Shown in pieces: positions 12,218 to 57,161 of a stretch of 64,000 nt of DNA. A program made the position numbers and the translations under genes. Each line of letters starts with the position of its first letter. Positions within the stretch are counted from its first letter, which is position 1. This DNA comes from Hanamia sp. (GTDB lineage: Bacteria > Bacteroidota > Bacteroidia > Chitinophagales > Chitinophagaceae). The DNA is taken from assembly GCA_035532615.1 (NCBI GenBank), contig DATKQQ010000076.1:483-64482 (forward strand), in the 5' to 3' direction. The notes beneath the pieces were generated by a model. It was not told the origin of the DNA. It was given only the letters and a program-made list of their open reading frames with translations, and did not search any database.

Positions 12218-12230
12218 ACACTAATTTATG

Positions 12231-12252
12231 GGATGATTTTTCATCCTTTTTT
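12231..12252 (+). terminator. Rho-independent terminator
   Basis: GGATGA tttt TCATCC stem followed by TTTTTT. Confidence 0.55.
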
Positions 12253-12302
12253 AGATCGTTTTTTTAATTAAAAAGTTGTTTTAGGACAATTAAAGTGAAA
12301 TA

Positions 12303-13850: not shown

Positions 13851-13989
13851 TTTCCCGAAGGCAATAGTTTTCAGATTTCACGAATTAGTTTTTCAGGAAT
13901 AACTTTTAGAAAGTTTGATTAAAGCTTTATGATAATTGGGACTATTATTCATCTTTCGAATGTTCATTATAATAAATCAAACTAATATC

Positions 13990-38696: not shown

Positions 38697-38933
38697 ATGC
38701 GCAAGCTCGACAATGATGATATTGATTTAAAAAAAAAGATTGCATTAAGGATTAAATCTTTAAGAAAAGCCACTGGTAAAGGAATGACGGAATTTGCCAA
38801 AGACACGTATAAAGATAAGCAAAGCCAAAACCGATGGGAAAAAGAAGGTGCTTCCATTTTTACAATAAACAAATTTTGCAAAGAGATAGGAATAACTATT
38901 TCGGAGTTCTTTAATGATCCAATATTCAGATAA
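38697..38933 (+). CDS. XRE-family HTH transcriptional regulator
   Basis: 78 aa. HTH_3-like LRIKSLRKATGKGMTEFAKDT... segment. Confidence 0.8.
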   Translation: MRKLDNDDIDLKKKIALRIKSLRKATGKGMTEFAKDTYKDKQSQNRWEKEGASIFTINKFCKEIGITISEFFNDPIFR

Positions 38934-38978
38934 CAACTACAAATTGATTTTTGACCCCAAAGGCAATTTTAGATCTGG

Positions 38979-39521
38979 CTATTTATTATTAATTGCTCTC
39001 AAAGTCCTTTCGTCTATAATACCAGTTCTTGGCACATTCAGGACTTTTTGAAATAATTTTATGCCTTCCCATAAGCCTATATTTACACATGAATCAAATA
39101 AATCATTAGCTATTTCCTGGCTTATAATTTCATCTCCGCGAATTTTGTCCCAATATTCTTTTCTATAAAATTTTTGTACACTTTTTTCAAGATCATAAAT
39201 TTTCAAGAGGTTTTTTGGAAATAAATCAGAAACCTTACAACTGTCGATCAATTTCCATCCCTCCCAACTATTATGAAAATTTCTTGCAATCCCTTTATAA
39301 GTTTCACCTCCTCTATCTTTTTTGTCATTTGCATAATATCCTTCAAATTTCATGGTCCGATTATAAGCAAGAATAAAGTTTGCCTTAGGACTTATAATAC
39401 ATAAATTTTTTACTGGATAATTTTCACTTTCTATATTTTTATTTATATCGACCGATAATTTACAATATTGAGAAGATAATGGTATTAGAATGAAATATAA
39501 CACATAGTTTTTTAAAATCAT
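38979..39521 (-). CDS. GH108-like muramidase domain protein, C-terminally short
   Basis: FEGYYANDKKDRGGETYKGI matches the GH108 EGGY...DPGG.T..GI signature, and FDSCVNIG is also conserved. It ends where the peptidoglycan-binding domain normally begins. ATG at 39521 preferred over the TTG at 39536. Confidence 0.65.
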   Translation of the reverse strand: MILKNYVLYFILIPLSSQYCKLSVDINKNIESENYPVKNLCIISPKANFILAYNRTMKFEGYYANDKKDRGGETYKGIARNFHNSWEGWKLIDSCKVSDLFPKNLLKIYDLEKSVQKFYRKEYWDKIRGDEIISQEIANDLFDSCVNIGLWEGIKLFQKVLNVPRTGIIDERTLRAINNK

Positions 39522-40026
39522 GGGTGTCTGGTTCAATTGATTCTTACAATTTGAAAATTAGGATCAAAAAAGCATTTATTACGAGATGATTGTCTCTGAG
39601 TATGGATGTAAAATCGATTACCAAATATAATGAATAAGGTTATCTGTTAAATAAAAATTGCTGGTATTTTTTCGTTTAATGGTTAGCACTACTGTCTTTA
39701 ATTCAATTTGAAGTGTTCCTTATTTCGATTATGGATGAGCGTTAGTCATGGATTTAAAATTCAATTTTGGCATTTTTAGTATGGCGGATTCCAGGTTGCA
39801 ACTTTCCGAACGTAGACAACCGTTTTTTCCGGAAGATTATGAAATATTGGAAACAGCAATTCAAGGTTTTAATATAACTAGTACTCTTTGACAAAAACCA
39901 CTTGAGTGCAAATAAACAAGTGAAATAAATAGCTATTTAAGCAGGTTGTATACCCCTTTTGCCAAAGTATCTGCTTTAAAACTTCTTTATAATTTCTTCA
40001 AATAATTAGTCATGCTTCGTTTACAA

Positions 40027-41043
40027 TTATTCAAAAAATAATTTTATTATTTCATTTCCTTTATTTTGAAAAGCTACATGAGCCTTTTCTTTTAGTTTTT
40101 CCAGTTTTTGCTTGTTTGTCTCATCCAATTCAATAACACAAGTTTCGTCAAGTTCGGTCTCTATCCGTTTGTAGACGAAATTTGGCTTATGTCCTTCTTC
40201 CCGGTCTATTCCGTTTTGCAGTAAGCTGATTAAGTTCTGTACCAATTGAGATTGTCCTTGCATGAACAATTCTATCAAACGTTTACGGTTACTGCCCACC
40301 CAATATTTTAGTCCCCAATTATGACGATCACGTGCATCAACAAAATGTTGGTTACCTGTACCCAGTGAAAGCACTTGCAGTTCCGACAAATCCTTTTTGA
40401 ATGCTTTTTGTGCTTCGATAATGGTAAGCAGGGTAGGATTATTCGCGACAACTCCTCCGTCTACTTTATTGCTAAATGATTGTTCCATCCCATGTAGGTC
40501 CACATACTTTGTGGAATAAGGATCGAAGTAAGTGGGTGCAGCAGATGTTGCCATTGCTGCTTGGTAAGCCGGTATATGATAATCTCTGATAAATCTTGGA
40601 TGATAATCGTTCTTGAGAACTGAAGGCTTTCCCTGCATCAGGTCATAAATAGGAATACATACATTGGTTTTACAGTCTTTTAAAATCGGTTCTTCCCCAC
40701 CTTTTGCTTCTTTGAACTTATCCCGAATAAGATTTTCCAAATCATCCTGTTCATGAGCGGAGTAAAATATCTTGCCTAACAACGTTCTTTTGCGGCCAAA
40801 GATTTTTGAAGCATTATTAAAATATAAATCAACAATTTCCGCTGCTGGTATTCCCAGTGCAAGTGCAATTGCTATTATACCGCCAGTAGATGTGCCACCT
40901 ATCAATTGAAAGTTATCATAGATGCTGTATTTCTCTACGCCTCTAGCCTTTAATTGTGCTTCTATCAGAGCCAAAAACATAGCAGGGAATATTCCTCGAA
41001 TACCACCCCCATCTATCGTTAATATATTGAACTTCTTTTCCAT
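40027..41043 (-). CDS. Patatin-like phospholipase (CapV-like effector)
   Basis: Oxyanion DGGGIRG, nucleophile GTSTG, catalytic DGG. 338 aa. Confidence 0.9.
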   Translation of the reverse strand: MEKKFNILTIDGGGIRGIFPAMFLALIEAQLKARGVEKYSIYDNFQLIGGTSTGGIIAIALALGIPAAEIVDLYFNNASKIFGRKRTLLGKIFYSAHEQDDLENLIRDKFKEAKGGEEPILKDCKTNVCIPIYDLMQGKPSVLKNDYHPRFIRDYHIPAYQAAMATSAAPTYFDPYSTKYVDLHGMEQSFSNKVDGGVVANNPTLLTIIEAQKAFKKDLSELQVLSLGTGNQHFVDARDRHNWGLKYWVGSNRKRLIELFMQGQSQLVQNLISLLQNGIDREEGHKPNFVYKRIETELDETCVIELDETNKQKLEKLKEKAHVAFQNKGNEIIKLFFE

Positions 41044-41177
41044 TTTAACTTTGTCATTTTAACTCTAATCTCTACGATTAATATTTTTTGTATCTGAGAT
41101 TGAAGAACGGCACCTCCAAATTTTTTGATAATTCTTTTCTAAATATCCAACATAATTGTATCTATTGGTAATCAGAT

Positions 41178-41633
41178 CTATTTCTCATGGTCGTCTTGTT
41201 TTTTAGGTAAATTATCTTGCGGATGTATTCCACCACCAGTCCATTCACCAGTGCCCAACCATATTTCATAATGATACAACCATTCGTAAGCCCAAGGAAT
41301 TACAGTTGTTGCTAACAACATCGTTTTATTCCATTCCTTGCCATCAGGATAGTACAGGCACAAGCGTTGTTCTTTTTGGTCGTAACAATGGGGCAACTTT
41401 GTTTTTCCCTTGGCTAAAGGCAATGGCTTAGGATCTACTATATAAATCTTTGGAGGGCTGCTCAATTGATACATTAGTTTTATCTTATACAATCCACCTA
41501 AAGGAGATGGTGATATAGTGGATGTCCAGATCAACTGCCGATCATGCACAGTCTTTACCTTACCATCAATAAAGATGTGTCGTAAATTCATTGCTTGAAT
41601 TCCTATTGGTAATGGTTTAATCCTCCGGGCCAT
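41178..41633 (-). CDS. Stand-alone UBC/E2-like protein (Cap2-short-like)
   Basis: YKIKLMY..SSPPKIYIV..LPHCYDQKEQRLCLYYPDGKEW..IPWAYEWL follows the E2 fold pattern, with His and Cys spaced 10 residues apart. ATG at 41633 overlaps the cyclase stop by 17 nt; an alternative ATG is at 41591. Confidence 0.55.
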   Translation of the reverse strand: MARRIKPLPIGIQAMNLRHIFIDGKVKTVHDRQLIWTSTISPSPLGGLYKIKLMYQLSSPPKIYIVDPKPLPLAKGKTKLPHCYDQKEQRLCLYYPDGKEWNKTMLLATTVIPWAYEWLYHYEIWLGTGEWTGGGIHPQDNLPKKQDDHEK

Positions 41634-42861
41634 AAAAATTGTGTGGTTTAATTGCTTTAACAGCACCGGCAACAATACCGATCTTTGGATCAAATTGGTT
41701 TGCACCTTTTTCTGTTAACAATCTTTTGCGTTCGCCAATATTGCTGAACATCTTTTTAATTTCATTTTGACCGAAAGCATTTGAAAGGCTTTTGATAATG
41801 TTTTGTTGACCGTGTTGTCCCATTGCATTGGAAATATCCTCTTTCACTTTTTTTAACCAGTCCTGAAACTTTTTTTCTTTAGCAGGAGTTTCTCTCCACT
41901 TGTCAGCAAAGTTTTCAGCAGGATTAACAGGATTTTCCACGCATCTGTAATACTCTCTTGTTATCGGATCCTGCCTTTCTACAAGGAACAAATGCATCCT
42001 TTCAATTACACCTACTAGAGCTTCTAAAACGTTGGTTTCTTTCTGATATGCATACGCGGCTAGTGTAGTGATGATAATGGAAATAGGCTTCTCTTTATCG
42101 TCTTTGAAGATCATGTCCCGGTGGCGTTTTAGAATTTGTACAACTCTTTGCAACGGCATTTTTTCACCCTGGAATTTTGGTACTGGCTTTACAGCTTCAT
42201 TGAGTGAAAACAGCTTGACACCAGAAAATGTCGCCTGGTCGATAAACCATCTTGCATAACCAAAGGGGTTGCTCCTTAACCAGTATTCAGGTCTTCTTTC
42301 TGTTTCGTAATTATCTTCTTCCCTGTCAGTAATGCTGATTGCTAAGTGATCCACATCATTAATAGTGATATTTGAAAAAGCTTTCTCCAGCAGCACTGAA
42401 TAGCCAGAAGCAATAACTGCAGGCAATATATCCATATGGTACTGATCGTTCTTTTCAGAGTTTTCGCGGTATCTCAGCGTCCAGCATCTTCTGCCTTCTT
42501 CATCTAATAAGCTCTGATAGGTTTTGTGGTTTTCAATCTGGTCACCTACAATATCCTTCAAGTCCTTTTGGGTCCACCAATCTTTCTTGCCGGATAACTC
42601 ACAAACTAAATCAATATCCAAGTCCTGATTTTCGTCATAAGGACAGATTGTGGTACCCAACAAGAATGAACCCTGTGGCTTTATAGTAGGGTTATAGGGT
42701 TTTAATAATGATCCATCAGCACAAAGCCAACTACCAACTGCTTTGTAACTTTTGACCGCGTTATTAAATTCTGTTTCAGAAATATCGAGGGCATTACCAA
42801 GTTCCTCCAGAATTTCGTTGAACTCGGTTTTTTGTTCTTTTGTAAGCATATTAAATGACAT
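41617..42861 (-). CDS. Pol-beta-fold nucleotidyltransferase, CD-NTase/SMODS-like (putative CBASS cyclase)
   Basis: G64-S65...D80-L-D82-I-D84 and D144 (HMDILP) give the GS/DxD/D triad. Also an N-terminal spine helix and a long helical C-terminal half. Confidence 0.7.
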   Translation of the reverse strand: MSFNMLTKEQKTEFNEILEELGNALDISETEFNNAVKSYKAVGSWLCADGSLLKPYNPTIKPQGSFLLGTTICPYDENQDLDIDLVCELSGKKDWWTQKDLKDIVGDQIENHKTYQSLLDEEGRRCWTLRYRENSEKNDQYHMDILPAVIASGYSVLLEKAFSNITINDVDHLAISITDREEDNYETERRPEYWLRSNPFGYARWFIDQATFSGVKLFSLNEAVKPVPKFQGEKMPLQRVVQILKRHRDMIFKDDKEKPISIIITTLAAYAYQKETNVLEALVGVIERMHLFLVERQDPITREYYRCVENPVNPAENFADKWRETPAKEKKFQDWLKKVKEDISNAMGQHGQQNIIKSLSNAFGQNEIKKMFSNIGERKRLLTEKGANQFDPKIGIVAGAVKAIKPHNFYGPED

Positions 42862-42948
42862 TTATTTACTTTAATTAGTTTTTAATTTGAATTTCTACAT
42901 AAACTTTTCTCAACTGAATTCTTAAGCGTTATATCTTCAAAGTAGTTT

Positions 42949-43275
42949 TTAAACTAAACCACTTATTTTATTAACAACGATTCCCACAATCCCATTCTTA
43001 AATTTATCCAGTTCAATTGCTTTCAAACCTGCTTCTTTAAGTGCCTCCATTTCCATTTCTTCTTTTTGTGTTTGGATTTGGAATTCAAAATCTTCAATTG
43101 TAATTTCTTTATCTACGACTTGCAAACTCCATTTCTTTATATTTTCTTTCATAGAGTTTAATGCAGCCATACCATCCGCTTTTGCTTCTTTAAAACTATC
43201 TTTTAAGGACTCCTGCGCAAGACTTACCACGTCGGTTTTTATGCTTTTAAAAAAAGCTTCAAAATTAAAATCCAT
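42949..43275 (-). CDS. Hypothetical helical/coiled-coil protein
   Basis: 108 aa, K/E-rich, with hydrophobic tail GIVGIVVNKISGLV. Same strand as the cyclase and 88 nt upstream of it. Confidence 0.5.
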   Translation of the reverse strand: MDFNFEAFFKSIKTDVVSLAQESLKDSFKEAKADGMAALNSMKENIKKWSLQVVDKEITIEDFEFQIQTQKEEMEMEALKEAGLKAIELDKFKNGIVGIVVNKISGLV

Positions 43276-43292
43276 TATTGTATTATTTAAAT

Positions 43293-43736
43293 TTAATTGT
43301 TATTTGTTATTGAGGATTGTTTTATCTTTTTACTTTCCAGTTCGGCAATTTGATCAAAGGATTTAGCAATCAATTCCTTTTCATTTTCAATGAAGGCAGG
43401 CCTTAATTTCTTTTCGCTTTTCCAGTGTTGTATAAACCCACCATACAGATGCCCACTGGTATCGATCATCTTTTCCCACATTTTAGTTGTGATCGTGTTT
43501 TTGGGTCTGTTTTTTTCGTATTCATAAAGTTTATTCATCTCTGTTTGTACATTTGCTATTTCCTGCAAATGATCAGCATATTTATCCGTTGCCAGGCTCA
43601 TAGTATTCATAGCATCTACCTTAATAGAAGTAGCCTGCGTGTAAGCATATTGATCAAAATTTGATATGGTAGCACATCCGTATAACAAAGAGAAGACAAT
43701 AAAAATACCTATCCTTGAATAGTAACTAAATTTCAT
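43293..43736 (-). CDS. Hypothetical lipoprotein
   Basis: Lipobox SLLYGC. 147 aa. Lies 18 nt upstream of the 108-aa ORF. Confidence 0.55.
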   Translation of the reverse strand: MKFSYYSRIGIFIVFSLLYGCATISNFDQYAYTQATSIKVDAMNTMSLATDKYADHLQEIANVQTEMNKLYEYEKNRPKNTITTKMWEKMIDTSGHLYGGFIQHWKSEKKLRPAFIENEKELIAKSFDQIAELESKKIKQSSITNNN

Positions 43737-43802
43737 TCTTGAATTAATTGAGTTGTTAATAAATTCATTTTTGTATAAAAGTATTCATAGGGTATTTCTT
43801 AA

Positions 43803-44036
43803 TTAATGTTTCGTATCCTTGGGTGGATTCGGATCATTCCCATAAGAATCTTTGTCTCTGATTCTACCGTCAGGTCTATGAATCACCACTTCTGATTCTT
43901 GATTAATAGCTATTTCTCTTGCAATTTCAATAGCCTGTTTTTGTGTGTCGGTAATTCTTGTGGCTTTTTCATTACCGGCACCTTTAACTTGCCATCCGCC
44001 CTCGGGATGGGGAGTTACGTGTTGATTTTTACCCAT
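43803..44036 (-). CDS. DUF2188-like small protein
   Basis: HVTPHPEGGWQVKGAGNEKATRITDTQKQAIEIAREIA matches the DUF2188 pattern. ATG at 44036 preferred over the TTG at 44072. Confidence 0.65.
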   Translation of the reverse strand: MGKNQHVTPHPEGGWQVKGAGNEKATRITDTQKQAIEIAREIAINQESEVVIHRPDGRIRDKDSYGNDPNPPKDTKH

Positions 44037-44263
44037 TATATTTTTGTTTTTGGGTTTAATGATTTGCCCCAACCTTATATCGGAGTAGAGGCAGTGTCGC
44101 CGGAAAGCTTAAGAAAAGGAGTTATTAACGGCAGGAAGTTTTGTGACACTTACTGTGAGGTCTGCAAACCGCAGGCTTGTTTATTTTACAAACAAGAACT
44201 ACTTTTGCAGCGCAAATTTAAATAACGGAAAAGAGTAAGCTTATCAAAGAACTCAATTCCTGG

Positions 44264-44304
44264 CAGCCCTGATAGCGCTAACTATCGGGGCTGTACCTTT
44301 TATT
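44264..44304 (+). terminator. Orphan strong hairpin plus T-rich tail
   Basis: CAGCCCTGATAG / CTATCGGGGCTG 12-bp stem (one G-U), then TACCTTTTATT. No credible plus-strand gene lies upstream. Confidence 0.45.
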
Positions 44305-45123
44305 AAAGAACTCTTTAACATTTCAATAATTGCGCCCATTTTCGCATCTCTACATTTCTATGTCAAATTTACATAAAATTAATCTTTGATAATAATTTTA
44401 GTATAAAAAAACTAAAAAATTGTGCAAATAATGGCCTACGCTCTGCCAGATATGGAAGTTTAAAGAAGTTTTGTCATTTCTTTTATCTCCAATTTGCCCC
44501 GATCCAAATAATAAGAATGATTTTAAGAATTAAAGTTCTGGAGAGATATAGCAATCAACAAATTCAACAATTAATTTTCGTTTAAACCAAATAAGAACTT
44601 GCCTTATGGTAAATCTTATTAACTGTTGCTGATAGCTTAAGAGTAGGGCAGAAGATATTTTTCGTTTACACATTGCTGTGACATTGTTGGATAGTAAACG
44701 AAGAAATACTGAGGAATTTTATTTTGAAGTCTAAATAATATGCGGGACTTCGTACACCAACCGTACATTGAAGAATTTTACAATCGCCGGGGAGGCTTCA
44801 ATACATGACAAAAGCGTTGTGCATGAACACCGATAAAAGGAAGAATTTTTTATTAAAACAATTTCTTACTTTGTGGGGTAACTGATTGCTCTTCGCTATC
44901 CTGTTTTAAAAGCTGATTTTCACTGCATGCATACTTTTTTATCTATATAATTCAATACATTTGAAATCTGTTAGTGAAGGAGAAAACTGAAAAGATCAAT
45001 TCATTGTATCTTGTCTAAAACAAAGGTTTTGTTTGATTGAATAAGCTGATACGGTTGGATTTGGACAACAATATGTTTTCAACATCTTCACGCACTTATT
45101 CTAAAAAAATATTAATCTCACAA

Positions 45124-46695
45124 ATGGCCAAAACAACAAAGCAAAAAAAACAAAAATCTATTGAAGAAACACTGTGGGACAGTGCGAATAAATTAAGGGG
45201 TTCAGTTGAACCATCCGAATATAAGCATGTGGTTTTAGGACTTATATTTTTAAAGTTTGCCAGCGATAAGTTTGAAGAACGCAGGCAAGAATTGATTGTC
45301 GAAGGCAAAGAAAAGTATGTAGACATGGTGGAGTTTTACACCAGTAAAAATGTTTTCTACTTACCTGAAATTTCCCGGTGGAGTTATTTAATCGAAAATG
45401 CCAAACAAGATGACATTGCCATAAAAATTGATACGGCTCTTTTTACTGTTGAGAAAAATAATCCCGCTTTGAAAGGCGCCTTGCCCGACAATTATTATTC
45501 CCGAATGAGTTTGGATGTAAGCAAACTCGCTTCGTTGCTGGATACGATCAATAATATTAATACCCTTAAAGACAAAGAGCAGGACATTGTGGGAAGAGTA
45601 TATGAATACTTTCTCAGCAAGTTCGCTATTGCTGAAGGAAAAGGTAAAGGAGAATTTTATACGCCAAAGAGTATTGTAAACCTGATAGCTGAAATGATCG
45701 AACCTTACAAGGGGAAAATATATGACCCTTGTTGTGGTTCGGGTGGCATGTTTGTACAAAGTATGAAGTTCATTGAAAGCCATCATGGGAATAAAAAAGA
45801 TATTTCTATTTACGGTCAGGAAGCCATTACCACCACCTACAAACTGGCAAAGATGAATCTTGCCATTCGCGGTATTAGCGCAAATCTTGGCGATGTTGCA
45901 GAGAATACATTTTTCCGTGACCAGCACAAAGATTTGAAAGCCGATTATGTAATGGCTAATCCTCCTTTTAACCAGAAGCAATGGCGGGCAGACAATGAAC
46001 TCACCAGCGACCCAAGGTGGGCGGGCTATGAAGTGCCGCCAACGGGAAATGCCAACTATGCCTGGATTTTGAACATTGTGAGTAAGCTTTCTGAAAACGG
46101 AGTGGCTGGTTTTGTTTTGGCAAATGGCGCTTTATCAGGCGGAGGGACAGAATATGACATCCGGAAAAAGCTCATTGAAAATAATTTGGTGGAAGCTATT
46201 GTAGTGTTGCCACAGAATATGTTTTATACGACCAACATTAGCGTTACTCTTTGGTTTTTGAATAAAAATAAAAAAGAAAGAACTATTGAGCAAAACGGGA
46301 AGATTAAAAAATACCGCAACCGGGAAAGGGAAATACTCTTTATGGATTTAAGAGAAATTGGGATTCCATTTGAAAAAAAATACATCCAGTTTTCAGATGA
46401 TAATATCAAGCAGGTGACCGATACTTTTCACAATTGGCAACAAATCGGTTATGAAAATACTTATCAGAATACTCCGGAGTTTTGTTACAGTGCCTCATTT
46501 GAAGAAATAGAGAAAAAAGATTTTTCATTGGTACCCAGCAAGTACATTGAATTTGTAAACCGTGATGAGAATGTTGACTTTGATGAAAAGATGCAGGCCT
46601 TACAAAAAGAATTTGCCGATTTGCTGAAAGCAGAAGATCAATCAAAAAAAGATTTGCTAACCGTATTTAAAGAACTGGGTTATGAAATTGAATGA
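45124..46695 (+). CDS. hsdM: Type I restriction-modification system methyltransferase subunit
   Basis: HsdM N-terminal domain (LWDSANKLRG), SAM motif DPCCGSGGMF and catalytic NPPF. Start moved to MAKTTKQ. Confidence 0.9.
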   Translation: MAKTTKQKKQKSIEETLWDSANKLRGSVEPSEYKHVVLGLIFLKFASDKFEERRQELIVEGKEKYVDMVEFYTSKNVFYLPEISRWSYLIENAKQDDIAIKIDTALFTVEKNNPALKGALPDNYYSRMSLDVSKLASLLDTINNINTLKDKEQDIVGRVYEYFLSKFAIAEGKGKGEFYTPKSIVNLIAEMIEPYKGKIYDPCCGSGGMFVQSMKFIESHHGNKKDISIYGQEAITTTYKLAKMNLAIRGISANLGDVAENTFFRDQHKDLKADYVMANPPFNQKQWRADNELTSDPRWAGYEVPPTGNANYAWILNIVSKLSENGVAGFVLANGALSGGGTEYDIRKKLIENNLVEAIVVLPQNMFYTTNISVTLWFLNKNKKERTIEQNGKIKKYRNREREILFMDLREIGIPFEKKYIQFSDDNIKQVTDTFHNWQQIGYENTYQNTPEFCYSASFEEIEKKDFSLVPSKYIEFVNRDENVDFDEKMQALQKEFADLLKAEDQSKKDLLTVFKELGYEIE

Positions 46696-47722
46696 AATGG
46701 CAAACAGCAGTTTTGTTTCCGATATAAAACAAATTCTTGATCAGGCAAGACAAAAAGCCTATTCCGCTATCAATGTTGCAATGGTAGAAGCCTATTGGTT
46801 TGTTGGCAAAAAAATTGTGGAGCAGGAGCAACAAGGACAACAGCGTGCAGGATATGGACAATCCCTGATAAAAGAATTATCCAAAGTTTTAACACTGGAT
46901 TTTGGAAAAGGGTTTTCCGAAACAAACATTCGCAGCTTTCGCCTGTTTTATCTCACATTCCCTGAATATCTTTCAATTCAGCAGACACTGTCTGCTAAAT
47001 TGAGTTGGTCTCACTTTCAATTAATTATGAGGGTGTCAAACCTCAATGCACGGGCTTATTACCTCAAAGAAGCCGCTGACAATGGGTGGTCCGTTCGCAC
47101 TTTAGACAGAAATATTTCAACCCTTTATTACGACAGGCTACTACTTTCACAAAAAGAAGAACCCGTAAAGGATGAAATGATAGAAAAAACAAAAAAACTG
47201 CAACAGGATAAATTTGAGTTTATCAAAAATCCATCAGTGTTAGAATTTTTAAACCTTCCTGCCAATACCGGTTACACAGAATCTGAATTGGAAAGTGCAT
47301 TGATCAATAATCTGCAAAATTTTATACTGGAATTAGGTAAAGGTTTTGCCTTTGTAGAACAACAACAATTGATAAGAACGGAAACCAGGGATTATTTTAT
47401 TGATATGGTGTTTTATAATTATTTGCTCAAATGCTTTGTACTCATTGATTTAAAAACATCACGAATAAGCCACGAAGACGTGGGGCAAATGGATATGTAT
47501 GTACGCATGTATGATGAACTTAAAAAAAGCGCTGATGATAACCCCACGCTTGGCATTGTGCTGTGTACAGAAACCGACCAGGATATCGCCCGATATTCTA
47601 TTTTGAAAGGAAACGAACAAATATTTGCCACTAAATACAAATTATTTTTACCTACCGAAGAAGAATTGAGAACCGAAATTGAACGGGGAAAATTAGTACT
47701 GAAATTACAATTTGATAAATAA
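46682..47722 (+). CDS. DUF1016/YhcG-like PD-(D/E)xK nuclease
   Basis: GFAFVEQQQLIRTETRDYFIDMVFYNYLLKCFVLIDLK is the DUF1016 nuclease core. The first four codons, MKLN, are identical to those of hsdS. Confidence 0.8.
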   Translation: MKLNEMANSSFVSDIKQILDQARQKAYSAINVAMVEAYWFVGKKIVEQEQQGQQRAGYGQSLIKELSKVLTLDFGKGFSETNIRSFRLFYLTFPEYLSIQQTLSAKLSWSHFQLIMRVSNLNARAYYLKEAADNGWSVRTLDRNISTLYYDRLLLSQKEEPVKDEMIEKTKKLQQDKFEFIKNPSVLEFLNLPANTGYTESELESALINNLQNFILELGKGFAFVEQQQLIRTETRDYFIDMVFYNYLLKCFVLIDLKTSRISHEDVGQMDMYVRMYDELKKSADDNPTLGIVLCTETDQDIARYSILKGNEQIFATKYKLFLPTEEELRTEIERGKLVLKLQFDK

Positions 47723-47744
47723 GAGTTGGGTTATGAAATTAAAT
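47723..47744 (+). other. Scar: second copy of the hsdM-3'/hsdS-5' junction
   Basis: GAGTTGGGTTATGAAATTAAAT compared with 46672-46693 GAACTGGGTTATGAAATTGAAT (19/22). It reads ELGYEIKL*, a second HsdM C-terminus. Confidence 0.75.
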
Positions 47745-48977
47745 TATAAAAAGATTGGGGATCATATTCGTTTAGTTGATGAACGAAATACGGGCCTAAA
47801 AGTGAAATCACTTTTAGGTTTAAGTATTTCAAAACAATTCATTCCTTCTGTTGCAAATATTATCGGTACTGATATGGAGAATTATAAAATCATTCGCAAA
47901 AATCAGTTCGCCTGTAGCACCATGCAGGTAAGAAGAGATAAAAAAATGCCTGTTGCTTTATTGCAGGAAGTTGATGAAGCAATTATTTCCGCTGCATACC
48001 CCGTATTTGAAATTAAAGACAACAAAGAACTTTTACCCGAATATTTAATGATGTGGTTTAGCCGCGTGGAGTTTGATCGTGAAGCTTGTTTTTATGCCAT
48101 TGGCGGCGTACGTGGAAGTTTGGAGTGGGAAGATTTTTGCGATATGAAATTACCGATTCCAAAACCCGACAAACAAAAAAAAATTGTAAAAGAATACAAC
48201 ACCATTGTAAACCGCATTACACTCAACAACCAACTCATTCAAAAATTAGAAGAAACAGCGCAGGCAATTTACAAGCAATGGTTTGTTGATTTTGAATTTC
48301 CTGATGAAGAGGGGAAGCCTTATAAAAGTAATGGCGGTAAATTGGATTGGAATGAGGAGTTGGGAAAGGAAATTCCGAAGGGGTGGGAAGTGAAATCTTT
48401 AAAATCACTTTGCTCAAAAATTGGAAGCGGCGCAACGCCTAAAGGGGGAAAGGAAAGTTATCATAAAACCGGGGTTTCACTTGTTAGGAGTATGAATGTA
48501 CATGATTACATCTTTTCAACCGAAGACTTGGCTTTTATAAATGATAAACAAGCAAAAGCACTTGAAACAGTTTCCCTCGTAAAACACGATATTCTTCTTA
48601 ACATCACGGGTGTGTCAGTCGCACGGTGTTGTATGGTTCCCGAATTTGTTTTGCCGGGCAGAGTTAATCAACACGTAATGATAATTCGACCAAGGGAAGA
48701 ATATCATTTGTCGCATTATTTGCTTTGTCTTCTTTGTTACTCTGATAGTAAGTCAAAGTTGCTTGGCATTAGTCAATCAGGGTCTACAAGAGAAGCTATA
48801 ACCAAAATGGAAATTGAAGAATTTAAAGTCATTAAGCCTGAAAAATTGACATTAAAATCGTTTGATCAAAAACTTAAAGTTCTTCTCAGAACCATTGAAG
48901 TTGAAATACAGAATAATATTAGACTAAATGAATTGCAGAATCTCCTTCTCTCAAAACTTGCAACTTTAGAAAATTAA
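47733..48977 (+). CDS. hsdS: Type I restriction-modification system specificity subunit
   Basis: Two target-recognition halves separated and followed by conserved helical spacers. ATG at 47733 preferred over the TTG at 47712. Confidence 0.85.
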   Translation: MKLNYKKIGDHIRLVDERNTGLKVKSLLGLSISKQFIPSVANIIGTDMENYKIIRKNQFACSTMQVRRDKKMPVALLQEVDEAIISAAYPVFEIKDNKELLPEYLMMWFSRVEFDREACFYAIGGVRGSLEWEDFCDMKLPIPKPDKQKKIVKEYNTIVNRITLNNQLIQKLEETAQAIYKQWFVDFEFPDEEGKPYKSNGGKLDWNEELGKEIPKGWEVKSLKSLCSKIGSGATPKGGKESYHKTGVSLVRSMNVHDYIFSTEDLAFINDKQAKALETVSLVKHDILLNITGVSVARCCMVPEFVLPGRVNQHVMIIRPREEYHLSHYLLCLLCYSDSKSKLLGISQSGSTREAITKMEIEEFKVIKPEKLTLKSFDQKLKVLLRTIEVEIQNNIRLNELQNLLLSKLATLEN

Positions 48978-48981
48978 TAGC

Positions 48982-51900
48982 ATGGAAAATAAATTTAGTA
49001 AGGGTGCTGAATGGCGTAAATGGGACCTACATGTTCATACTCCAAAATCAATTTATCAAAAGTTTGGTATTGATGATGATGCAACGTGGGAAGAATATTT
49101 AACTGATTTAGAATCTCTGAGTGATGACTATGCAGTTTTGGGCATTAACGATTATTTATTCATTGATGGATATGAAAAGCTTATTCATGAACAAAAAGTA
49201 AATAACCGGTTACAAAAGTTGAAATTACTCCCTGTTTTAGAATTTCGAATTGAAAAATTTGCTGGTATTGATTTTCAAAATTTGAAGCGAATTAATCTTC
49301 ATGTAATTTTTTCTGACGAATTGAATATTGAGACAATTAAAAGTCAATTTTTAAATACTCTGGAACAACACTACTATTTGGAGAAAGATCATAGTAGGTG
49401 GGCCAGAGCGATAACTCGGGAAAGTGTTGAGGAGTTAGGTGCAAAACTTAAAGAAACTGTCCCACCTGAAGAATTGAAGAAATTTGAAGATAACATTACC
49501 GAGGGGTTCAATAATTTAAATGTAAAGGAGGATCAAATTTTTGAATCTCTAAAAAAAGATTGCTTCAAGGACAAATATTTAATTGCTATCGGAAAAACAG
49601 AGTGGGCCGATTTAAAATGGACTGAGGCATCAATTGCTACTAAAAAATCAATCATCAACCAAGCGGACATTGTATTTACGGCTTCTCAATCGTATGAAGC
49701 GTTTAATAATGCCAAGAACCAACTGACAAAGCAAGAAGTGAATAATTTACTACTTGATTGTAGTGATGCACATTATTTATCGTCTCATACTGATAAAGAT
49801 AGAATTGGAAATTGTTTTACTTGGCTTAAAGCGGATCCGACTTTTGAAGGGCTCAAACAAATTATCAACGAACCGGAAGGTCGAATATTCATTGGAGAAA
49901 CACCTCCTATAAGAACTAAGGTTCAAGATAATAGAACTAAATATATTAAAAGCATTTCCATTAAAGGAGTAAATGGCTATGATGGTAGATATGGTAAGTG
50001 GTTTAACGACATTGTAATACCATTAAATCATGAGTTAGTAGCTATCATTGGTAACAAAGGAAGTGGCAAAAGTGCAATTTCCGACATAATCGCCTTATGC
50101 GGATTTTATAAAAATCAAGAACATTTTTCTTTTTTGAATAAGAAAAAATTTAGAGATGGCAAACATGCAAAGAATTTCGAAGCAATATTAACATGGGAAA
50201 GCGAAAATACAAATCCGAAGAATTTGGCAGATGAAAAAACGGAAGGTGAAATTGAACTGGTAAAATATTTACCTCAAGGGTATTTTGAAAAGTTGACAAA
50301 CGAAATAAGCTCAACAGAAGAATTTCAGAAAGAAATAGAAAATGTTGTTTTTACACATTTAGATAATGATGATAAAGTTGGCTTTAATTCCTTTGAAGAT
50401 TTAATTGAATCAAAAAAGAAGCTAGCTGAAAAAGATATAACTCTTTTAAAAGAAGATAATAATGAATTAAATACAAATATTATTAAGTTAGAAAATAAAC
50501 TTAACGCTAAGTATAAAAAAGAAATACAAAATAAAATTCAATTGAAGAAGGACGCACTTGCCGCTTTAATTGAGCCAATACCTGTTATAGATCCAAACAC
50601 TGATTCAGTGATAGCAGAATTTAATCAAATATCACTCAATAAAATAAAAGGAATAAAAAGTGAGATTGAAGTTTTAGAAGCAGAGATCAATTCAATTCAA
50701 ACTAAAAAACAAATTATACTTATAGAATTAAGAGAGCTTAAAGAGTTAAAGCAAGATATTAATTTCAAAATAAATGATATTGAAGAATTCAAAAATCAAA
50801 ATAAAGAGATTTGTATAAAATATTCTTTGCCTCTTGATGAATTAATATCAGTCTCTGAAAATATATCCACATTAAAAACTGTTATTGAAACTAAAGAATC
50901 AACACTTACAGATTTTAAGATAGTGCTTGGTGAACAAGAAAGCGGAGTCTCAGAGTATAAATCGGCTAAGAGTGCATTAATTGATTTGCAAAAGGCACTT
51001 CAAGAAGAACAAAATAAATTAGATGGACCTCAAAAGGCATTTCAAATTTATCTCGCTGAAAAGAAAAACTGGGAGGAGAAAAAAAATAAAATTATCGGTA
51101 CAAGATATATCTCTGATAGTTTAACATTCTTTGAATTCGAATTAAAATATTTGGAAGAATCCCTTTCCACTGAAATTGATGTATTACGGGAAAAACGTTT
51201 AGGCATAGCTGAAAAAATCTTTAACAAAAAGCAGCAAATAATATCTGTTTACAAAGATGTAAAACAAAAATTAGATTTAATAATTGGTTCCAATGCCGAT
51301 TTATTAAATAAATATAAAATAGATATTAATGCTGCATTGTCATTATCAAGTTCCTTTTCTGAGATCTTTTTCAGAAATATTAATCAAGGAGTATTAGGAA
51401 CATTTTACTCAATCGAAGGCGGGGTCGCTGAACTAAATAAAATTAAACAAGATGCCAATTTTGATAATTTTGAGAATACTAAATTGTTTTTAAATAATTT
51501 AAATGAATCTATTCATATTGACCAACGAGATAAATATGGAAAAGAAAAAAGGTACATAGATGAACAAATTAAAAATCCATTAGAGCTTTACAATTACTTA
51601 TATTCCATTGAATTTTTAGATTATAATTATCAATTAATGCAAGGGTCAAAAACATTGCAACAATTATCACCTGGCGAAAAAGGGGCTTTGTTATTGGTTT
51701 TTTATTTACTTCTTGATAAAAATGATATTCCCTTAATAATAGACCAGCCCGAAGATAATTTAGATAACAACAGTGTAGCTCACATACTCGTTCCATTTAT
51801 TCGTAATGCCAAAAGTAAAAGACAAATAATTTTGGTGACGCATAATCCTAACCTTGCAATTGTTTCAGATGCGGAACAAGTAATTTATGTTAACCTTGAT

Positions 51901-52047
51901 AAAGAAAAGGACAATGAATTTACTTTCATTTCAGGAAGCATAGAGAATAGAACAGTCAATGATTGTATTGTCAAAGTTTTAGAAGGTGCTATGCCAGCTT
52001 TTAATAAAAGAAAGCAAAAGTATTACGAAGAATTTATTCAAAAATGA
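48982..52047 (+). CDS. PHP-domain phosphoesterase fused to a coiled-coil ABC/SMC-like ATPase
   Basis: WDLHVHTPKS (PHP), Walker A GNKGSGKSA, about 450 aa of K/E/N-rich coiled coil, signature LSPGEKGAL, Walker B LIIDQPEDNLD, and VTHNPN. Confidence 0.75.
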   Translation: MENKFSKGAEWRKWDLHVHTPKSIYQKFGIDDDATWEEYLTDLESLSDDYAVLGINDYLFIDGYEKLIHEQKVNNRLQKLKLLPVLEFRIEKFAGIDFQNLKRINLHVIFSDELNIETIKSQFLNTLEQHYYLEKDHSRWARAITRESVEELGAKLKETVPPEELKKFEDNITEGFNNLNVKEDQIFESLKKDCFKDKYLIAIGKTEWADLKWTEASIATKKSIINQADIVFTASQSYEAFNNAKNQLTKQEVNNLLLDCSDAHYLSSHTDKDRIGNCFTWLKADPTFEGLKQIINEPEGRIFIGETPPIRTKVQDNRTKYIKSISIKGVNGYDGRYGKWFNDIVIPLNHELVAIIGNKGSGKSAISDIIALCGFYKNQEHFSFLNKKKFRDGKHAKNFEAILTWESENTNPKNLADEKTEGEIELVKYLPQGYFEKLTNEISSTEEFQKEIENVVFTHLDNDDKVGFNSFEDLIESKKKLAEKDITLLKEDNNELNTNIIKLENKLNAKYKKEIQNKIQLKKDALAALIEPIPVIDPNTDSVIAEFNQISLNKIKGIKSEIEVLEAEINSIQTKKQIILIELRELKELKQDINFKINDIEEFKNQNKEICIKYSLPLDELISVSENISTLKTVIETKESTLTDFKIVLGEQESGVSEYKSAKSALIDLQKALQEEQNKLDGPQKAFQIYLAEKKNWEEKKNKIIGTRYISDSLTFFEFELKYLEESLSTEIDVLREKRLGIAEKIFNKKQQIISVYKDVKQKLDLIIGSNADLLNKYKIDINAALSLSSSFSEIFFRNINQGVLGTFYSIEGGVAELNKIKQDANFDNFENTKLFLNNLNESIHIDQRDKYGKEKRYIDEQIKNPLELYNYLYSIEFLDYNYQLMQGSKTLQQLSPGEKGALLLVFYLLLDKNDIPLIIDQPEDNLDNNSVAHILVPFIRNAKSKRQIILVTHNPNLAIVSDAEQVIYVNLDKEKDNEFTFISGSIENRTVNDCIVKVLEGAMPAFNKRKQKYYEEFIQK

Positions 52048-52154
52048 AATTCAACGAAGACACATTAGAGCAAGCCGTTATTGAATTATATGAAGCGAAA
52101 AAAATACAAAACCAATATGTGTCCGGTTTTTTAGTAAATAAATCAGCATTTTAA
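52044..52154 (+). pseudogene. Remnant of an hsdR 5' end (36 codons)
   Basis: MKFNEDTLEQAVIELYEAKK... compared with the resident HsdR MKFTEETLEQAVIELFETQQ. 38/45 nt are identical by hand alignment. It starts in an ATGA overlap with the preceding stop codon. Confidence 0.7.
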
Positions 52155-53507
52155 ATGAAGTCAGAAACCAATCGGATAGAATACAAACAAGAACTCACCG
52201 ATGATTTGGAGAAAGAAATAATTGCTTTCCTGAATTATCATGAAGGCGGTTTGATCTATATTGGTATTCATAAATCGGGCAAAGCGATAGGCATAAAGGA
52301 TGCCGATGCAATACAATTAAAAATCAAAGACCGGCTTAAGCACAATATTTTGCCTTCCTGTTTGGGTTTGTTTGATATAGTATTGGAAGAGCGGGAAGAA
52401 AAAGAAATTATTAAAATCATTATAGCCAGCGGCCCTGAGAAGCCGTATCATCTTAGAAAATACGGCATGTCTGAAAAAGGGGCGTATATCCGCGTGGGTA
52501 GTGCCAGCGAACCAATGCCTGCCAAAATGATTGAAACTCTTTTTGCCAAAAGAACCCGCAATTCTATTGGCAGGATACAATCCAACCAACAAAAATTAAA
52601 GTTTGAACAGTTAAAAATTTATTATAACGAGGCCGGCAAAAAATTAAACTCCCAGTTTGCCGCTAACCTGGAGCTCTTAACCCAGGATGGTAAATATAAT
52701 TATGTGGCATTCCTGATGTCCGATGTAAACAGCCTCTCCATTAAAGTGGCGAAATATAAAGGGCTTACCAGGGTTGATCTGGTAGAGAATAATGAATATG
52801 GGTATTGTTCCCTTATCAAAGCAGCCAAGCAGGTATTGGATAAAATGGAATTAGAGAATAAAACCCTTGCCAAAATAACTTCAAAGGAAAGGGAAGAAAA
52901 AAGGTTATGGAATGCAATTGCATTGCGTGAGGCCATCATAAATGCTATTGTACATAATGACTATACAAACGAGGTACCACCTAAGTTTGAATTGTTTGCG
53001 GATAGGATAGAAATTACTTCGGCAGGTAGTTTACCGGATGGATTAAGCCGGGACGAATTTTTTGAAGGGTATTCTGTTCCCCGCAACCAGGAGATCATGC
53101 GCATCTTTAAGGACCTGGATTTGGTGGAGCATTTGGGTTCCGGAGTACCGCGTATTTTAGAAAGCTACGGAAAAGATTGCTTTACCTTTTCCGACAATTT
53201 TTTAAGAATGACTTTCCCCGCTGCAGGACCAGTCACCGATCAAGTCACCATGCAAGATACCATGCAAGTCACCATGCAAGTCACCATGCAAGTCAAAAAC
53301 TTAATTGATGTTTTGGAAAATGAGATGGATAGGCAGGAATTGCAAAAGAGGTTAAACCTTTCTAATAGAGATAATTTTAGAAAAAATTATTTAAAACCGG
53401 CTTTAGAACAGGGATTAATAGAAATGACCCTTCCTGAGAAACCCAACAGTCGTTTGCAAAAATACCGCCTGACAAAAAAGGGAATGAGCGTAAAACAAAG
53501 TCAATGA
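52155..53507 (+). CDS. AlbA_2 (Schlafen-like) DNA-binding / HATPase_c_4 / wHTH protein
   Basis: N-terminal NRIEYKQEL...FLNYHEGGLIYIG, a central AIINAIVHNDY motif, and a C-terminal winged-helix-like tail. Confidence 0.7.
   Translation: MKSETNRIEYKQELTDDLEKEIIAFLNYHEGGLIYIGIHKSGKAIGIKDADAIQLKIKDRLKHNILPSCLGLFDIVLEEREEKEIIKIIIASGPEKPYHLRKYGMSEKGAYIRVGSASEPMPAKMIETLFAKRTRNSIGRIQSNQQKLKFEQLKIYYNEAGKKLNSQFAANLELLTQDGKYNYVAFLMSDVNSLSIKVAKYKGLTRVDLVENNEYGYCSLIKAAKQVLDKMELENKTLAKITSKEREEKRLWNAIALREAIINAIVHNDYTNEVPPKFELFADRIEITSAGSLPDGLSRDEFFEGYSVPRNQEIMRIFKDLDLVEHLGSGVPRILESYGKDCFTFSDNFLRMTFPAAGPVTDQVTMQDTMQVTMQVTMQVKNLIDVLENEMDRQELQKRLNLSNRDNFRKNYLKPALEQGLIEMTLPEKPNSRLQKYRLTKKGMSVKQSQ
53229..53296 (+). 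repeat. In-frame 12-bp tandem repeat (CAAGTCACCATG)n inside the AlbA_2 gene
   Basis: Units at 53241, 53253 (two substitutions), 53265 and 53277, plus degenerate flanking units. Encodes VTDQVTMQDTMQVTMQVTMQV. Confidence 0.9.
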
Positions 53508-53551
53508 AATTCAATGAAGACACATTAGAGCAGGCAGTGATCGAATTTTAA
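53504..53551 (+). pseudogene. Second remnant of an hsdR 5' end (15 codons)
   Basis: MKFNEDTLEQAVIEF*. 37/45 nt are identical to the resident hsdR start. It again begins in an ATGA overlap with the preceding stop. Confidence 0.7.
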
Positions 53552-53562
53552 ACAATTAAAAA

Positions 53563-53829
53563 ATGGAACAATCAAACAGCGAAATAATCATTTACCAAAA
53601 CCCTGACGACAACATCAAAATAGATGTAAGGTTAGAGGAGGAAACTGTGTGGCTTACCCAGGTCCGGATGGCTGAATTATTTGGGAAAGCGAGAACCACG
53701 ATTACCGAACATATTCAAAATGCTTTTGAGGAAGGAGAACTGGACGAAAATGTGGTGTGTCGAAATTTCCGACATACCACTCAACATGGTGCTATTGCAG
53801 GGAAAACACAGGAAAAATCTGCAATGTAA
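53563..53829 (+). pseudogene. RhuM-family N-terminal fragment
   Basis: IIIYQNPDDNIKIDVRLEEETVWLTQVRMAELFGKARTTITEHIQNAFEEGEL is the RhuM N-terminus. The ORF stops after 88 codons, well short of what I recall as a several-fold longer full-length family. Confidence 0.55.
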
Positions 53830-53939
53830 TTTGAAAAATATAAAATTGCCCAAATACAAATTGAAAAGGAAGAAAGTTTAAAAGAAATTGAGGTAGATAT
53901 AAAAAAATTGAAAAAAATTACCAAACGCAAATAAGTGAA

Positions 53940-56900: not shown

Positions 56901-57161
56901 ATCCTGAAAGCTATTGCGCAGAAATACAATTTTGAATATCCTGAAGATAAATTAATTAAACTATCGCAAGAAGTTAAGAAGATAGTTGACGAGAAAGCAA
57001 GATATACGGATTGGGCAAACAGGGATGATATTAAAGCAGAATTAAAAGTTGACCTGATCTTAGTTCTTGCAGAAAATGAATATCCACCTGTACCGAAAGA
57101 TGAAGTGTTTAAAGAGATATTTGAGCAGGCGGAGAATTTTAAGAAGTATAGTGGGGTATAA
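53940..57161 (+). CDS. hsdR: Type I restriction-modification system endonuclease/helicase subunit
   Basis: 1073 aa. Walker A GATGSGKSF, DEAH box ISDEAHRSQ and helicase motif QTISRVNR. Confidence 0.9.
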   Translation: MKFTEETLEQAVIELFETQQIPHVHGETIHKEMSDVLIREDLKNFLLNQYSDDDITLNEIDGIIRQLDLYPSSALYESNKAIMKLIADGFTLKREDRNKKDLFIHLIDFRTLGNIQKEEANNEIGLAAEPEAVYQTKDNNIYKIVNQLEIAGYEKRIPDGIVYINGLPLVVIEFKTAVKENCTIKDAFTQLTVRYKRDIPELFKYNAFCVISDGVNNRMGSLFAPYDFFYAWRKINDSDEPSDGISSLHTMIEGLFYKERLLNVIRNFIYFPDTSKDDIKIVCRYPQYYAANKLFESIRVNQRPHGSGKGGTYFGATGSGKSFTMLYLTRLLMKSPHFASPTIILITDRTDLDDQLSAQFTNAKTFVGDENVISVETREELKSLLQNRNSGGVFLTTIHKFTESTELLTQRTNVICISDEAHRSQINLDQKIKITAKGVERKYGFAKYLHDSLPNATYVGFTGTPIDGTLDVFGKVEDAYTMKESVEDGITVRIVYEGRAAKVSLNEEKLKQIEEYYKQCAVEGTNEYQIEESKKAVTQMEVILGDPKRLKLVAVDFIEHYEKRIEEGASVKGKVMFVSISRPIAYDLYKEIIALRPEWAEIRDCEEGAELTEEEKKKLKPIEKIKMVMTRHKDDPKIMYDMLGTKEDRKELDRQFKNAKSNFKIAMVVDMWLTGFDVPFLETIYIDKPIEQHSLIQTISRVNRVYEGKEVGLVVDYVGIKNNMNLALAKYSKVSEDDFEDIDKAVVLVKDQLDLLAKLFHNFNTTDYFNGTPLQKLDCLNRAAEYAQVTDELEKRFVEMVKKLRSAYDLCCSSEDISEEERDHIHFYFAIKAIIHKLTKGDAPDTAQMNNRVRKMIEEALISDGVEEIFKLDKNDPKNNADIFSDEYMAKIDKIKLPNTKIKLLQKLLSKAIDDFKKINRIKGIDFSKKLKKLVEVYNERKDFDVFQSHVLDDVAEQFANLFKDLQKERNSFMDLGIDFEEKAFYDILKAIAQKYNFEYPEDKLIKLSQEVKKIVDEKARYTDWANRDDIKAELKVDLILVLAENEYPPVPKDEVFKEIFEQAENFKKYSGV

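Follow-up and report, generated by a model that had tools for sequence, protein, structure and literature searches.

The window analyzed here is a stretch of 64,000 nucleotides (nt) from Hanamia sp. (contig DATKQQ010000076.1); it is chromosomal Bacteroidota DNA, with tRNA synthetases, shikimate pathway genes and SusC/SusD, and it contains a defence island at about 37.7-60.7 kb that holds a three-gene operon encoding a cyclase, a stand-alone E2 protein and a patatin, a type I restriction-modification (R-M) operon that has further genes embedded in it, and an AbiEii-like gene. The three-gene operon is very probably a canonical E2-CBASS operon, i.e., a system of type II "short" CBASS (cyclic oligonucleotide-based antiphage signaling) that acts by abortive infection, with a CapV-like effector. 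Its three open reading frames (ORFs) and the overlap between the first two of them are as follows.

41617-42861, minus strand: CD-NTase ORF (nucleotidyltransferase of the cGAS/DncV-like type), a CdnG-like cyclase of 414 amino acids (aa)
41178-41633, minus strand: stand-alone CBASS E2 ORF, 151 aa from its ATG (41178-41705, 175 aa, if a GTG start is used)
40027-41043, minus strand: CapV-type patatin phospholipase ORF, the effector, 338 aa
41617-41633, minus strand: overlap of 17 nt shared by the 3' end of the cyclase gene and the 5' end of the E2 gene, from a direct read of the sequence

A sequence-only reading of this DNA had already proposed an E2-only CBASS in a Bacteroidota island, made up of a CD-NTase, an E2 of ubiquitin-conjugating (UBC) fold and a CapV-like patatin, and this identification is borne out by matches from PADLOC, NCBIfam, the PDB and Foldseek. 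The three co-directional minus-strand genes were found as described, every motif position given for the three proteins was exact when the sequence was read directly, and the E2 ATG at 41633 does overlap the cyclase 3' end by 17 nt. All three ORFs are full length when set against their homologues, and each of the three proteins is matched along its whole length by a PADLOC CBASS model (cyclase, model PDLC00780, 1.4e-124; E2, model PDLC00863, 6.1e-53; phospholipase effector, 9.7e-98), matches that as sequence scores are far beyond chance. The locus is 100% identical in two independent metagenome assemblies, so the operon layout is not an assembly artefact. The homology of all three proteins, the presence of all functionally mapped residues, the Gly-plus-tail end of the cyclase, and the lack of E1 and JAB genes are direct observations.

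The cyclase carries the motifs G64-S65, D80-L-D82-I-D84 and H142-M-D144-ILP and ends in KPHNFYGPED (405-414). Its catalytic residues are G64-S65, D82/D84 and D144, i.e., the GS...DxD...D set is complete, and alignment to D84/D86 of SmCdnG, the cyclase of the Serratia marcescens E2-CBASS, places the DxD at D82/D84 and not at D80. Among 39 cyclase homologues, G64, S65, D80, D82, D84, H407 and G411 are invariant, and the catalytic set of G64-S65, D82/D84 and D144 is invariant or nearly so. The protein scores above the cut-off for the Pfam families DncV-like_NTFase and SMODS, and by sequence it matches the PDB entries of VcCdnG (9WOO, 4.5e-53), SmCdnG (8HSB_A, 3e-36) and also BdCdnG. When its AlphaFold2 (AF2) model was searched with Foldseek, SmCdnG was the best match with template modeling (TM) scores of 0.69-0.76 and BdCdnG was also close, while VcCdnG (9WOO) was absent from the Foldseek matches. 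In addition, S197 and Y202 align with the CdnG lid residues S167 and Y172 of SmCdnG. Judged by closest similarity and by these lid residues, not by a formal clade phylogeny, the cyclase is CdnG-like and nearest to the clade-G CD-NTases. The structure comparison had been expected to return CD-NTase/SMODS proteins, and CdnG enzymes are indeed the best matches by both fold and sequence. The AF2 monomer model shows helices at 352-363 and 365-384, a predicted local distance difference test (pLDDT) score below 50 for residues 388-414, and a long low-confidence insert in the middle of the enzyme at about residues 150-193. According to a 2026 preprint, almost every clade-G enzyme has an activation loop that senses proteases.

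The E2 protein contains YKIKLMY (49-55), SSPPKIYIV (58-66), LPHCYDQKEQRLCLYYPDGKEW (80-101, with H82 and C92) and IPWAYEWL (112-119); the codon for C92 lies at 41358-41360 and that for H82 at 41388-41390. Its sequence matches SmE2, the E2 of the Serratia system (8HSB_B), at 4.7e-23. The UBC fold anticipated for this small ORF was recovered: its AF2 model (pLDDT 84.7) matches the CBASS E2 8YJY_B with a TM score of 0.77 and a probability of 1.0, and the Foldseek matches that come after it, UbcH5c, UFC1 and UEV, are far behind (TM about 0.4, E 0.04 or worse). The Pfam family PF26395 is annotated on all 120 E2 homologues, and the window E2 itself found no match in the local Pfam copy. Residues H82, C92, H137 and K144 align with H87, C101, H152 and K159 of SmE2, and among the homologues they are conserved in 120, 119, 106 and 87 of 120 sequences, respectively. 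Cys92 and His82 are the predicted catalytic dyad. The earlier likening of His82 to the HPN histidine of canonical E2s is not shared by the published view of this residue: the sequence reads L-P-H-C-Y, the HPN motif of eukaryote-type UBC E2s is absent, and the published analysis of the SmE2 family describes this His as a protease-type catalytic residue with, according to its authors, no counterpart in eukaryotic E2s.

The patatin has an oxyanion loop GGGIRG (12-17), the motif GTSTG (50-54) with nucleophile S52, and DGG (195-197) with D195. It matches Pfam Patatin at 1.8e-23, the NCBIfam family NF041079 CBASS_lipase ("CBASS cGAMP-activated phospholipase") at 261 bits against a cut-off of 200, and solved CapV-type chains in the PDB at 1e-30 to 2e-37. 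Pfam scans of window ORFs of at least 130 aa detected no ThiF/E1 and no JAB domain, in agreement with what had been reported for the window; the PADLOC E1-E2 (Cap2) model PDLC00857 gave only a marginal match (E 0.055), and the E2 has no E1 domain.

The predicted conjugation site of the cyclase is Y410-G411, and P412-E413-D414 form the tail that would be removed. It had been considered unusual that the cyclase does not end at a Gly or Ala, and this is not the case: all 120 of the closest cyclases have H-x-x-[Y/F/H]-G followed by one to seven residues, and in 87 of the 120 the tail is exactly three residues long and usually acidic, three being the modal length. A tail after the Gly is therefore the norm of the family, and no new chemistry is needed to account for it. 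The Pro directly after the Gly, which is found in only one of the 120 homologues besides the window, is the only unusual detail of the window cyclase tail.

The E2-CBASS family appeared in a 2020 catalogue with 616 systems; structures have since been determined (8HSB, 8YJY), Pfam lists the family under the name E2-CBASS (PF26395), and its mechanism was solved in 2024-2026. SmE2 is a Cys/His protease-ligase that removes the residues behind the Gly and forms a thioester and then an isopeptide bond (Yan et al., Nat Microbiol 2024, with its preprint 10.1101/2022.05.25.493364, and Xiao et al., mLife 2026, PMC12948482). In S. marcescens, Y405-G406 of SmCdnG is followed by E407, and SmE2 alone cuts after the Gly, without an E1 and without cofactors in the buffer; it even removes maltose-binding protein (MBP) or green fluorescent protein (GFP) fused behind the SmCdnG Gly. 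C101 carries the thioester, and the isopeptide bond is then made to K159 or to further cyclase molecules; H87 is needed as the protease-type base, and H152 is a pH switch. The window operon is thus an addition to an already characterized kind of E2-CBASS whose mechanism is known.

By homology with the S. marcescens system, the Cys92/His82 dyad of the window E2 would act as a protease and cut the cyclase after Gly411, freeing Pro-Glu-Asp, and the new carboxylate of the Gly would be caught as a thioester on Cys92. The cyclase would then be passed to a lysine, either Lys144 in the C-terminal loop of the E2 or, in poly-cGASylation, lysines on further cyclase molecules. This conjugation, which would need neither an E1 nor ATP, would prime the cyclase, and upon phage infection the primed CdnG-like enzyme would make a cyclic dinucleotide, most likely an isomer of cyclic GMP-AMP (cGAMP); the product of its closest characterized relatives is 3'2'-cGAMP. 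The signal would activate the CapV-like patatin, which would degrade membrane phospholipids so that the infected cell dies. For the window operon, it is from these relatives that we infer that an adduct forms, which nucleotide is made, what triggers the system and that it defends against phage.

The conjugation site also contains the start of the next gene. The E2 ATG (41633-41631) is formed from TAT GGC, the codons of cyclase Tyr410-Gly411, and the tail PED plus the stop codon supplies E2 codons 2-6 in another frame. Codons of the form [T/C]AT GGN give such a +1-frame ATG in 48 of 64 related loci, and a 17-nt overlap is likewise present in L001, L003 and L004. Judging from these sequences, the embedded E2 start probably explains the modal tail length, and it suggests translational coupling of cyclase and E2. 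We regard this as a modest lead, in that an E2 start within the Tyr-Gly codons ties the length and sequence of the cyclase tail to the N terminus of the E2.

To place the operon among its relatives, one genome per species was scanned, which yielded more than 574 relatives, the best 80 of them nearly all from Bacteroidota; layouts were counted in 83 non-redundant loci related to the window cyclase. The cyclase adjoins an E2 in 76 of the 83 loci, with a patatin or a SAVED protein as effector, and the compact cyclase-E2-patatin order of the window is found in 18. In 25 of the 83, genes of CBASS and of a type I R-M operon are interleaved in the order hsdM-cyclase-E2-hsdS-effector-(GGDEF/Schlafen/DUF2188)-hsdR, of which there is also a form with a leading hsdS'. 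The loci listed for this composite cassette are L001, L003, L004, L006-L014, L020, L025, L034, L041-L043, L050, L055, L057, L059, L072, L083, L084, L086 and L088-L090. In 12 of 23 loci, the gap between hsdM and the cyclase gene is -10 to +3 nt. Every close relative examined has the interleaved layout, namely those ten of the 83 loci that are nearest to the window (57-83% cyclase identity) and P0001 and P0002, metagenome proteins that are 84-86% identical to the window cyclase. The host R-M systems of the interleaved loci form one coherent family (pairwise HsdM identity of at least 57.6%), and the divergence of HsdM and HsdR follows that of the cyclase (Spearman 0.49 and 0.57, respectively). 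We found no description in the literature of a CBASS split by hsdS or interleaved with type I R-M genes; a prior mention is possible in the 2015 comparative work (Burroughs et al.), which was outside the search. Other modules, for abortive infection or restriction, have been described as embedded in type I R-M loci, e.g., PrrC in EcoprrI and TgvAB in VPI-2 of Vibrio cholerae (PMC12707154, PMC11411939).

Several of these loci have features of their own. In three of them (L083:3739-5286, L084:2753-4300 and L085:9998-11542) the cyclase has a C-terminal AGS_C sensor domain (PF18134) and no E2 partner. These cyclases of about 515 aa were considered as possible cyclase-E2 fusions, which was rejected on account of the extension being the AGS_C sensor domain. 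In L083 and L084 the AGS_C cyclase occupies the same R-M slot (hsdM-cyclase-hsdS-patatin), from which it follows that the regulatory module has been swapped within a fixed layout. L088 (8001-11972) pairs a cyclase 84% identical to that of the window with a SAVED effector in the same slot after hsdS, and a SAVED protein here as opposed to the patatin of the window indicates, at the level of sequence, a recent effector exchange. Beside the same locus lie a relaxase and, as a system of its own, the ubiquitin-like Multi_ubiq/Prok-E2_E/ThiF/BubE genes. A 257-aa GGDEF-domain protein (L003:9957-10730, in Pontibacter chitinilyticus) recurs after the patatin, with equivalents in L008, L013, L018, L043, L050 and L059, and its gene follows the patatin in both R-M-interleaved and compact loci of the CBASS clade. 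In L090, the only other locus with an FYG|PED cyclase end, the stretch from the E2 to hsdS encodes two proteins of 243 and 146 aa that match nothing in Pfam (9665-10841), and a 982-aa Metallophos/nSTAND NTPase protein (12162-15108) replaces the usual effector and hsdR.

The window operon, which is compact, retains traces of the interleaved layout between and around its genes:

41044-41177, minus strand: E2-patatin spacer of 134 nt, in which the two end stubs (5' and 3') of a deleted hsdS are joined (blastn and alignment)
42862-42898, minus strand: stub of an hsdM 3' end, about 37 nt (blastn and alignment; in the relatives hsdM directly precedes the cyclase gene)
39915-40013, minus strand: pseudogene stub of the GGDEF gene, its first approximately 33 codons, with in-frame TAA and TAG (tblastn, stops read directly)

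The blastn blocks against L001, L003 and L006 break exactly at the spacer, where the relatives have an hsdS of 1.1-1.3 kb. Within the spacer, alignment identifies two hsdS stubs: the 5' one (ATGAGAAATAGA...) runs for 8 codons before a stop, and the 3' one (..QKILIVEIRVK) matches the hsdS C terminus LMQKLLTGEVRVK. Upstream, blastn homology to the same three loci extends 28-38 nt past the cyclase start; downstream, residues 1-33 of the L003 GGDEF protein match by tblastn with 64% identity (E 2e-7), and at the nucleotide level the homology to L003 reaches as far as 39908. Given these homology breaks and the hsdM, hsdS and GGDEF stubs, the window is a deletion derivative of the interleaved layout; as read from the alignments, the three genes are what survives of a composite type I R-M/CBASS cassette after deletion of its R-M genes. 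The start of the cyclase gene bears the same mark. The 414-aa length previously given for the cyclase is correct for its longest ORF, which opens at ATG 42861 (MSFN...), four codons beyond ATG 42849; the homologues and an independent gene call start at ATG 42849 (MLTKEQK, 410 aa), which is probably the real start, so that the first four residues, MSFN, would come from the degenerate hsdM 3' stub. An exact-sequence look-up of the 414-aa cyclase found no match in public records, which we attribute to public gene calls taking the 410-aa start.

Upstream of the cyclase on the minus strand lies a cassette (42949-44072) of a DUF2188 gene (PADLOC PDC-S16, 1e-38), a 147-aa lipoprotein gene and a gene for a 108-aa protein; it recurs elsewhere (L093-L095) in defence-island contexts without CBASS. 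The lipoprotein has a lipobox LLYGC and a match to the PADLOC "Csx23" model (3.9e-12), with no Pfam or PDB match; it has no PDB similarity to a Csx23 structure. The 108-aa protein (orf108) and the "Csx23" lipoprotein were considered as extra CBASS parts and rejected, being absent from 85 of 85 CBASS loci related to the window, and the three-gene cassette as a whole does not belong to the CBASS. The type I R-M operon of the window (45037-57161, plus strand) is 2 kb from the three genes and divergently transcribed. It has a DUF1016/YhcG PDDEXK nuclease gene between hsdM and hsdS, and from hsdS to hsdR it encodes a 1021-aa AAA/SMC-like ATPase and then a Schlafen-AlbA2/Fic-like_C protein. This operon was tried as an orthologue of the relatives' host R-M and rejected at 25-30% identity. 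A stretch of low GC (0.326) that directly follows the CBASS operon downstream contains a GH108 lysozyme-like ORF (38697-39536; PHROG endolysin, 5e-22) with an odd N terminus and a TTG start, and a small helix-turn-helix (HTH) regulator gene; this stretch may be a prophage or mobile-element remnant at the island edge. Scans for sigma-70 promoters and terminators over 39400-45100 gave counts as in shuffled sequences (25 vs. 21.4 and 3 vs. 3.6, respectively).

Some observations weigh against a working E2-CBASS of the Serratia kind. Ubiquitin-Pro junctions are poor deubiquitinase substrates, and processing of a Gly-Pro bond could be slow, so the rare Pro after Gly411 might slow cleavage by the E2. 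The C-terminal E2-binding helix and three-stranded beta-sheet of the SmCdnG type are not confidently modeled in the window cyclase, where residues 388-414 have low pLDDT, and the characterized SmE2 system uses a 2TM-SAVED effector while the window has a CapV-type patatin. The ancestral upstream context of the operon is lost, and the Bacteroidota -7 box (TAnnTTTG) was not found directly upstream of the cyclase gene or in the E2-patatin spacer, the search returning only two, both upstream of DUF2188; expression would therefore need read-through from the DUF2188 cassette or an unrecognized promoter. Taken further, these points could mean that the three genes are a decaying or silent remnant cut from the R-M/CBASS cassette and left unexpressed or misregulated, e.g., by a Gly-Pro bond that blocks priming by the E2. 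The hsdM, hsdS and GGDEF stubs flanking the genes, the loss of the ancestral promoter region with no -7 box in its place, and the rarity of the Pro are what one would expect of such a remnant. However, the ORFs are intact and full length with every catalytic residue kept, compact cyclase-E2-patatin operons without R-M are common (the 18 loci above), so that the three genes can be self-sufficient, three upstream co-directional genes separated by gaps of 17-87 nt could supply transcription, and the layout is identical in the two independent metagenome assemblies; we hold a remnant of this kind to be very unlikely. It is barely credible that the operon is instead a minimal cyclase system regulated by an E2 through a new mechanism, in which a C terminus other than Gly demands chemistry unlike that of known CBASS. 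The sequence-only reading had favored this, and a cyclase that ends in PED and not in Gly or Ala, the lack of E1 and JAB, and the Pro found in one of 120 homologues could be cited for it. Yet the tail after the Gly is universal among the closest cyclases, with three residues commonest, E1-independent self-processing by the E2 is published for a family with solved structures, and the catalytic residues of the window E2 are those of SmE2. Tail processing after the Gly, which was part of the same proposal, stands as a process; what does not stand is its description as new chemistry, since it is the published mechanism of the S. marcescens family. A canonical E2-CBASS remains the reading we prefer, and as a defence system the window operon adds little, the useful outcome being the negative one that the tail is the normal pro-sequence of the family.

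The interleaved relatives raise a different question, i.e., whether the CBASS of this clade is a guard functionally coupled to type I R-M, as PrrC is to EcoprrI, with the window copy still depending on or sensing the neighboring R-M operon. The splitting of CBASS by hsdS with gaps of -10 to +3 nt and a single R-M family in 25 of 83 loci, the divergence of HsdM and HsdR that tracks the cyclase, the PrrC and TgvAB precedents and the presence in the window of a type I R-M operon at a distance of 2 kb would all fit such a guard. The window R-M is only 25-30% identical to the relatives' host R-M and divergently transcribed, though, the same three genes occur without nearby R-M in many genomes, and co-inheritance may stem from shared regulation or mobility and not from physical coupling; taken as a whole, the guard appears quite improbable. 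A variant that does not require coupling in the window, which we would call unlikely, is that the clade represents a long-lived composite operon (hsdS'-hsdM-cyclase-E2-hsdS-effector-hsdR) in which CBASS is tied to the state of the R-M system, e.g., firing on an anti-restriction protein as PrrC does, and that the window is a natural uncoupled derivative with a Gly-Pro site and the R-M deleted. The widespread Bacteroidota cassette itself, with CBASS genes interleaved and co-diverging with type I R-M, is a modest lead, and if the coupling is functional it would offer a concrete, testable idea of how some CBASS sense infection.

Compared with known systems, the canonical E2-CBASS of the window most resembles that of Serratia marcescens (SmCdnG-SmE2; 8HSB, 8YJY, 9KKB), which has the same stand-alone E2 beside a clade-G-like CD-NTase without E1 or JAB, equivalent residues at all four mapped E2 positions (H82/C92/H137/K144 for H87/C101/H152/K159), and a Tyr-Gly followed by removable residues. 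It is the top match by sequence and fold, except that the cyclase sequence is closest to VcCdnG (9WOO). Besides its effector, the window system differs in lacking an exonuclease gene, in its tail of three residues (PED) with Pro after the Gly as opposed to one (E) in Serratia, in an E2 that is about 33-35% identical to SmE2 and is without two inserts, of 4 and 6 residues, near the catalytic Cys, and in its Bacteroidota (Chitinophagaceae) host. With type II CBASS that encode Cap2, an E1-E2 fusion, and Cap3, a JAB protease (V. cholerae, E. coli, E. cloacae; Ledvina 2023; Jenson 2023, PMC10097602) it would share priming by ubiquitin-like conjugation of the CD-NTase C terminus, and it has the CapV patatin effector in common with them; unlike them, it lacks both the E1 adenylation domain and the JAB peptidase, and its cyclase, in place of a terminal Gly or Ala, bears a tail for the E2 itself to cut. 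Like PrrC and TgvAB, the CBASS genes of the window's relatives sit inside a type I R-M operon, of which the window keeps stubs; in contrast to those modules, the CBASS is split by hsdS into two blocks (cyclase-E2, hsdS, effector) and does not form a single one, and in the window the host R-M is gone. Finally, the window patatin has the GGGxRG, GxSxG and DGG motifs of V. cholerae CapV (8ZR9, 9KH7; PMC12480259), whose partner cyclase is DncV (3'3'-cGAMP), whereas the partner in the window is CdnG-like, with relatives that produce 3'2'-cGAMP.

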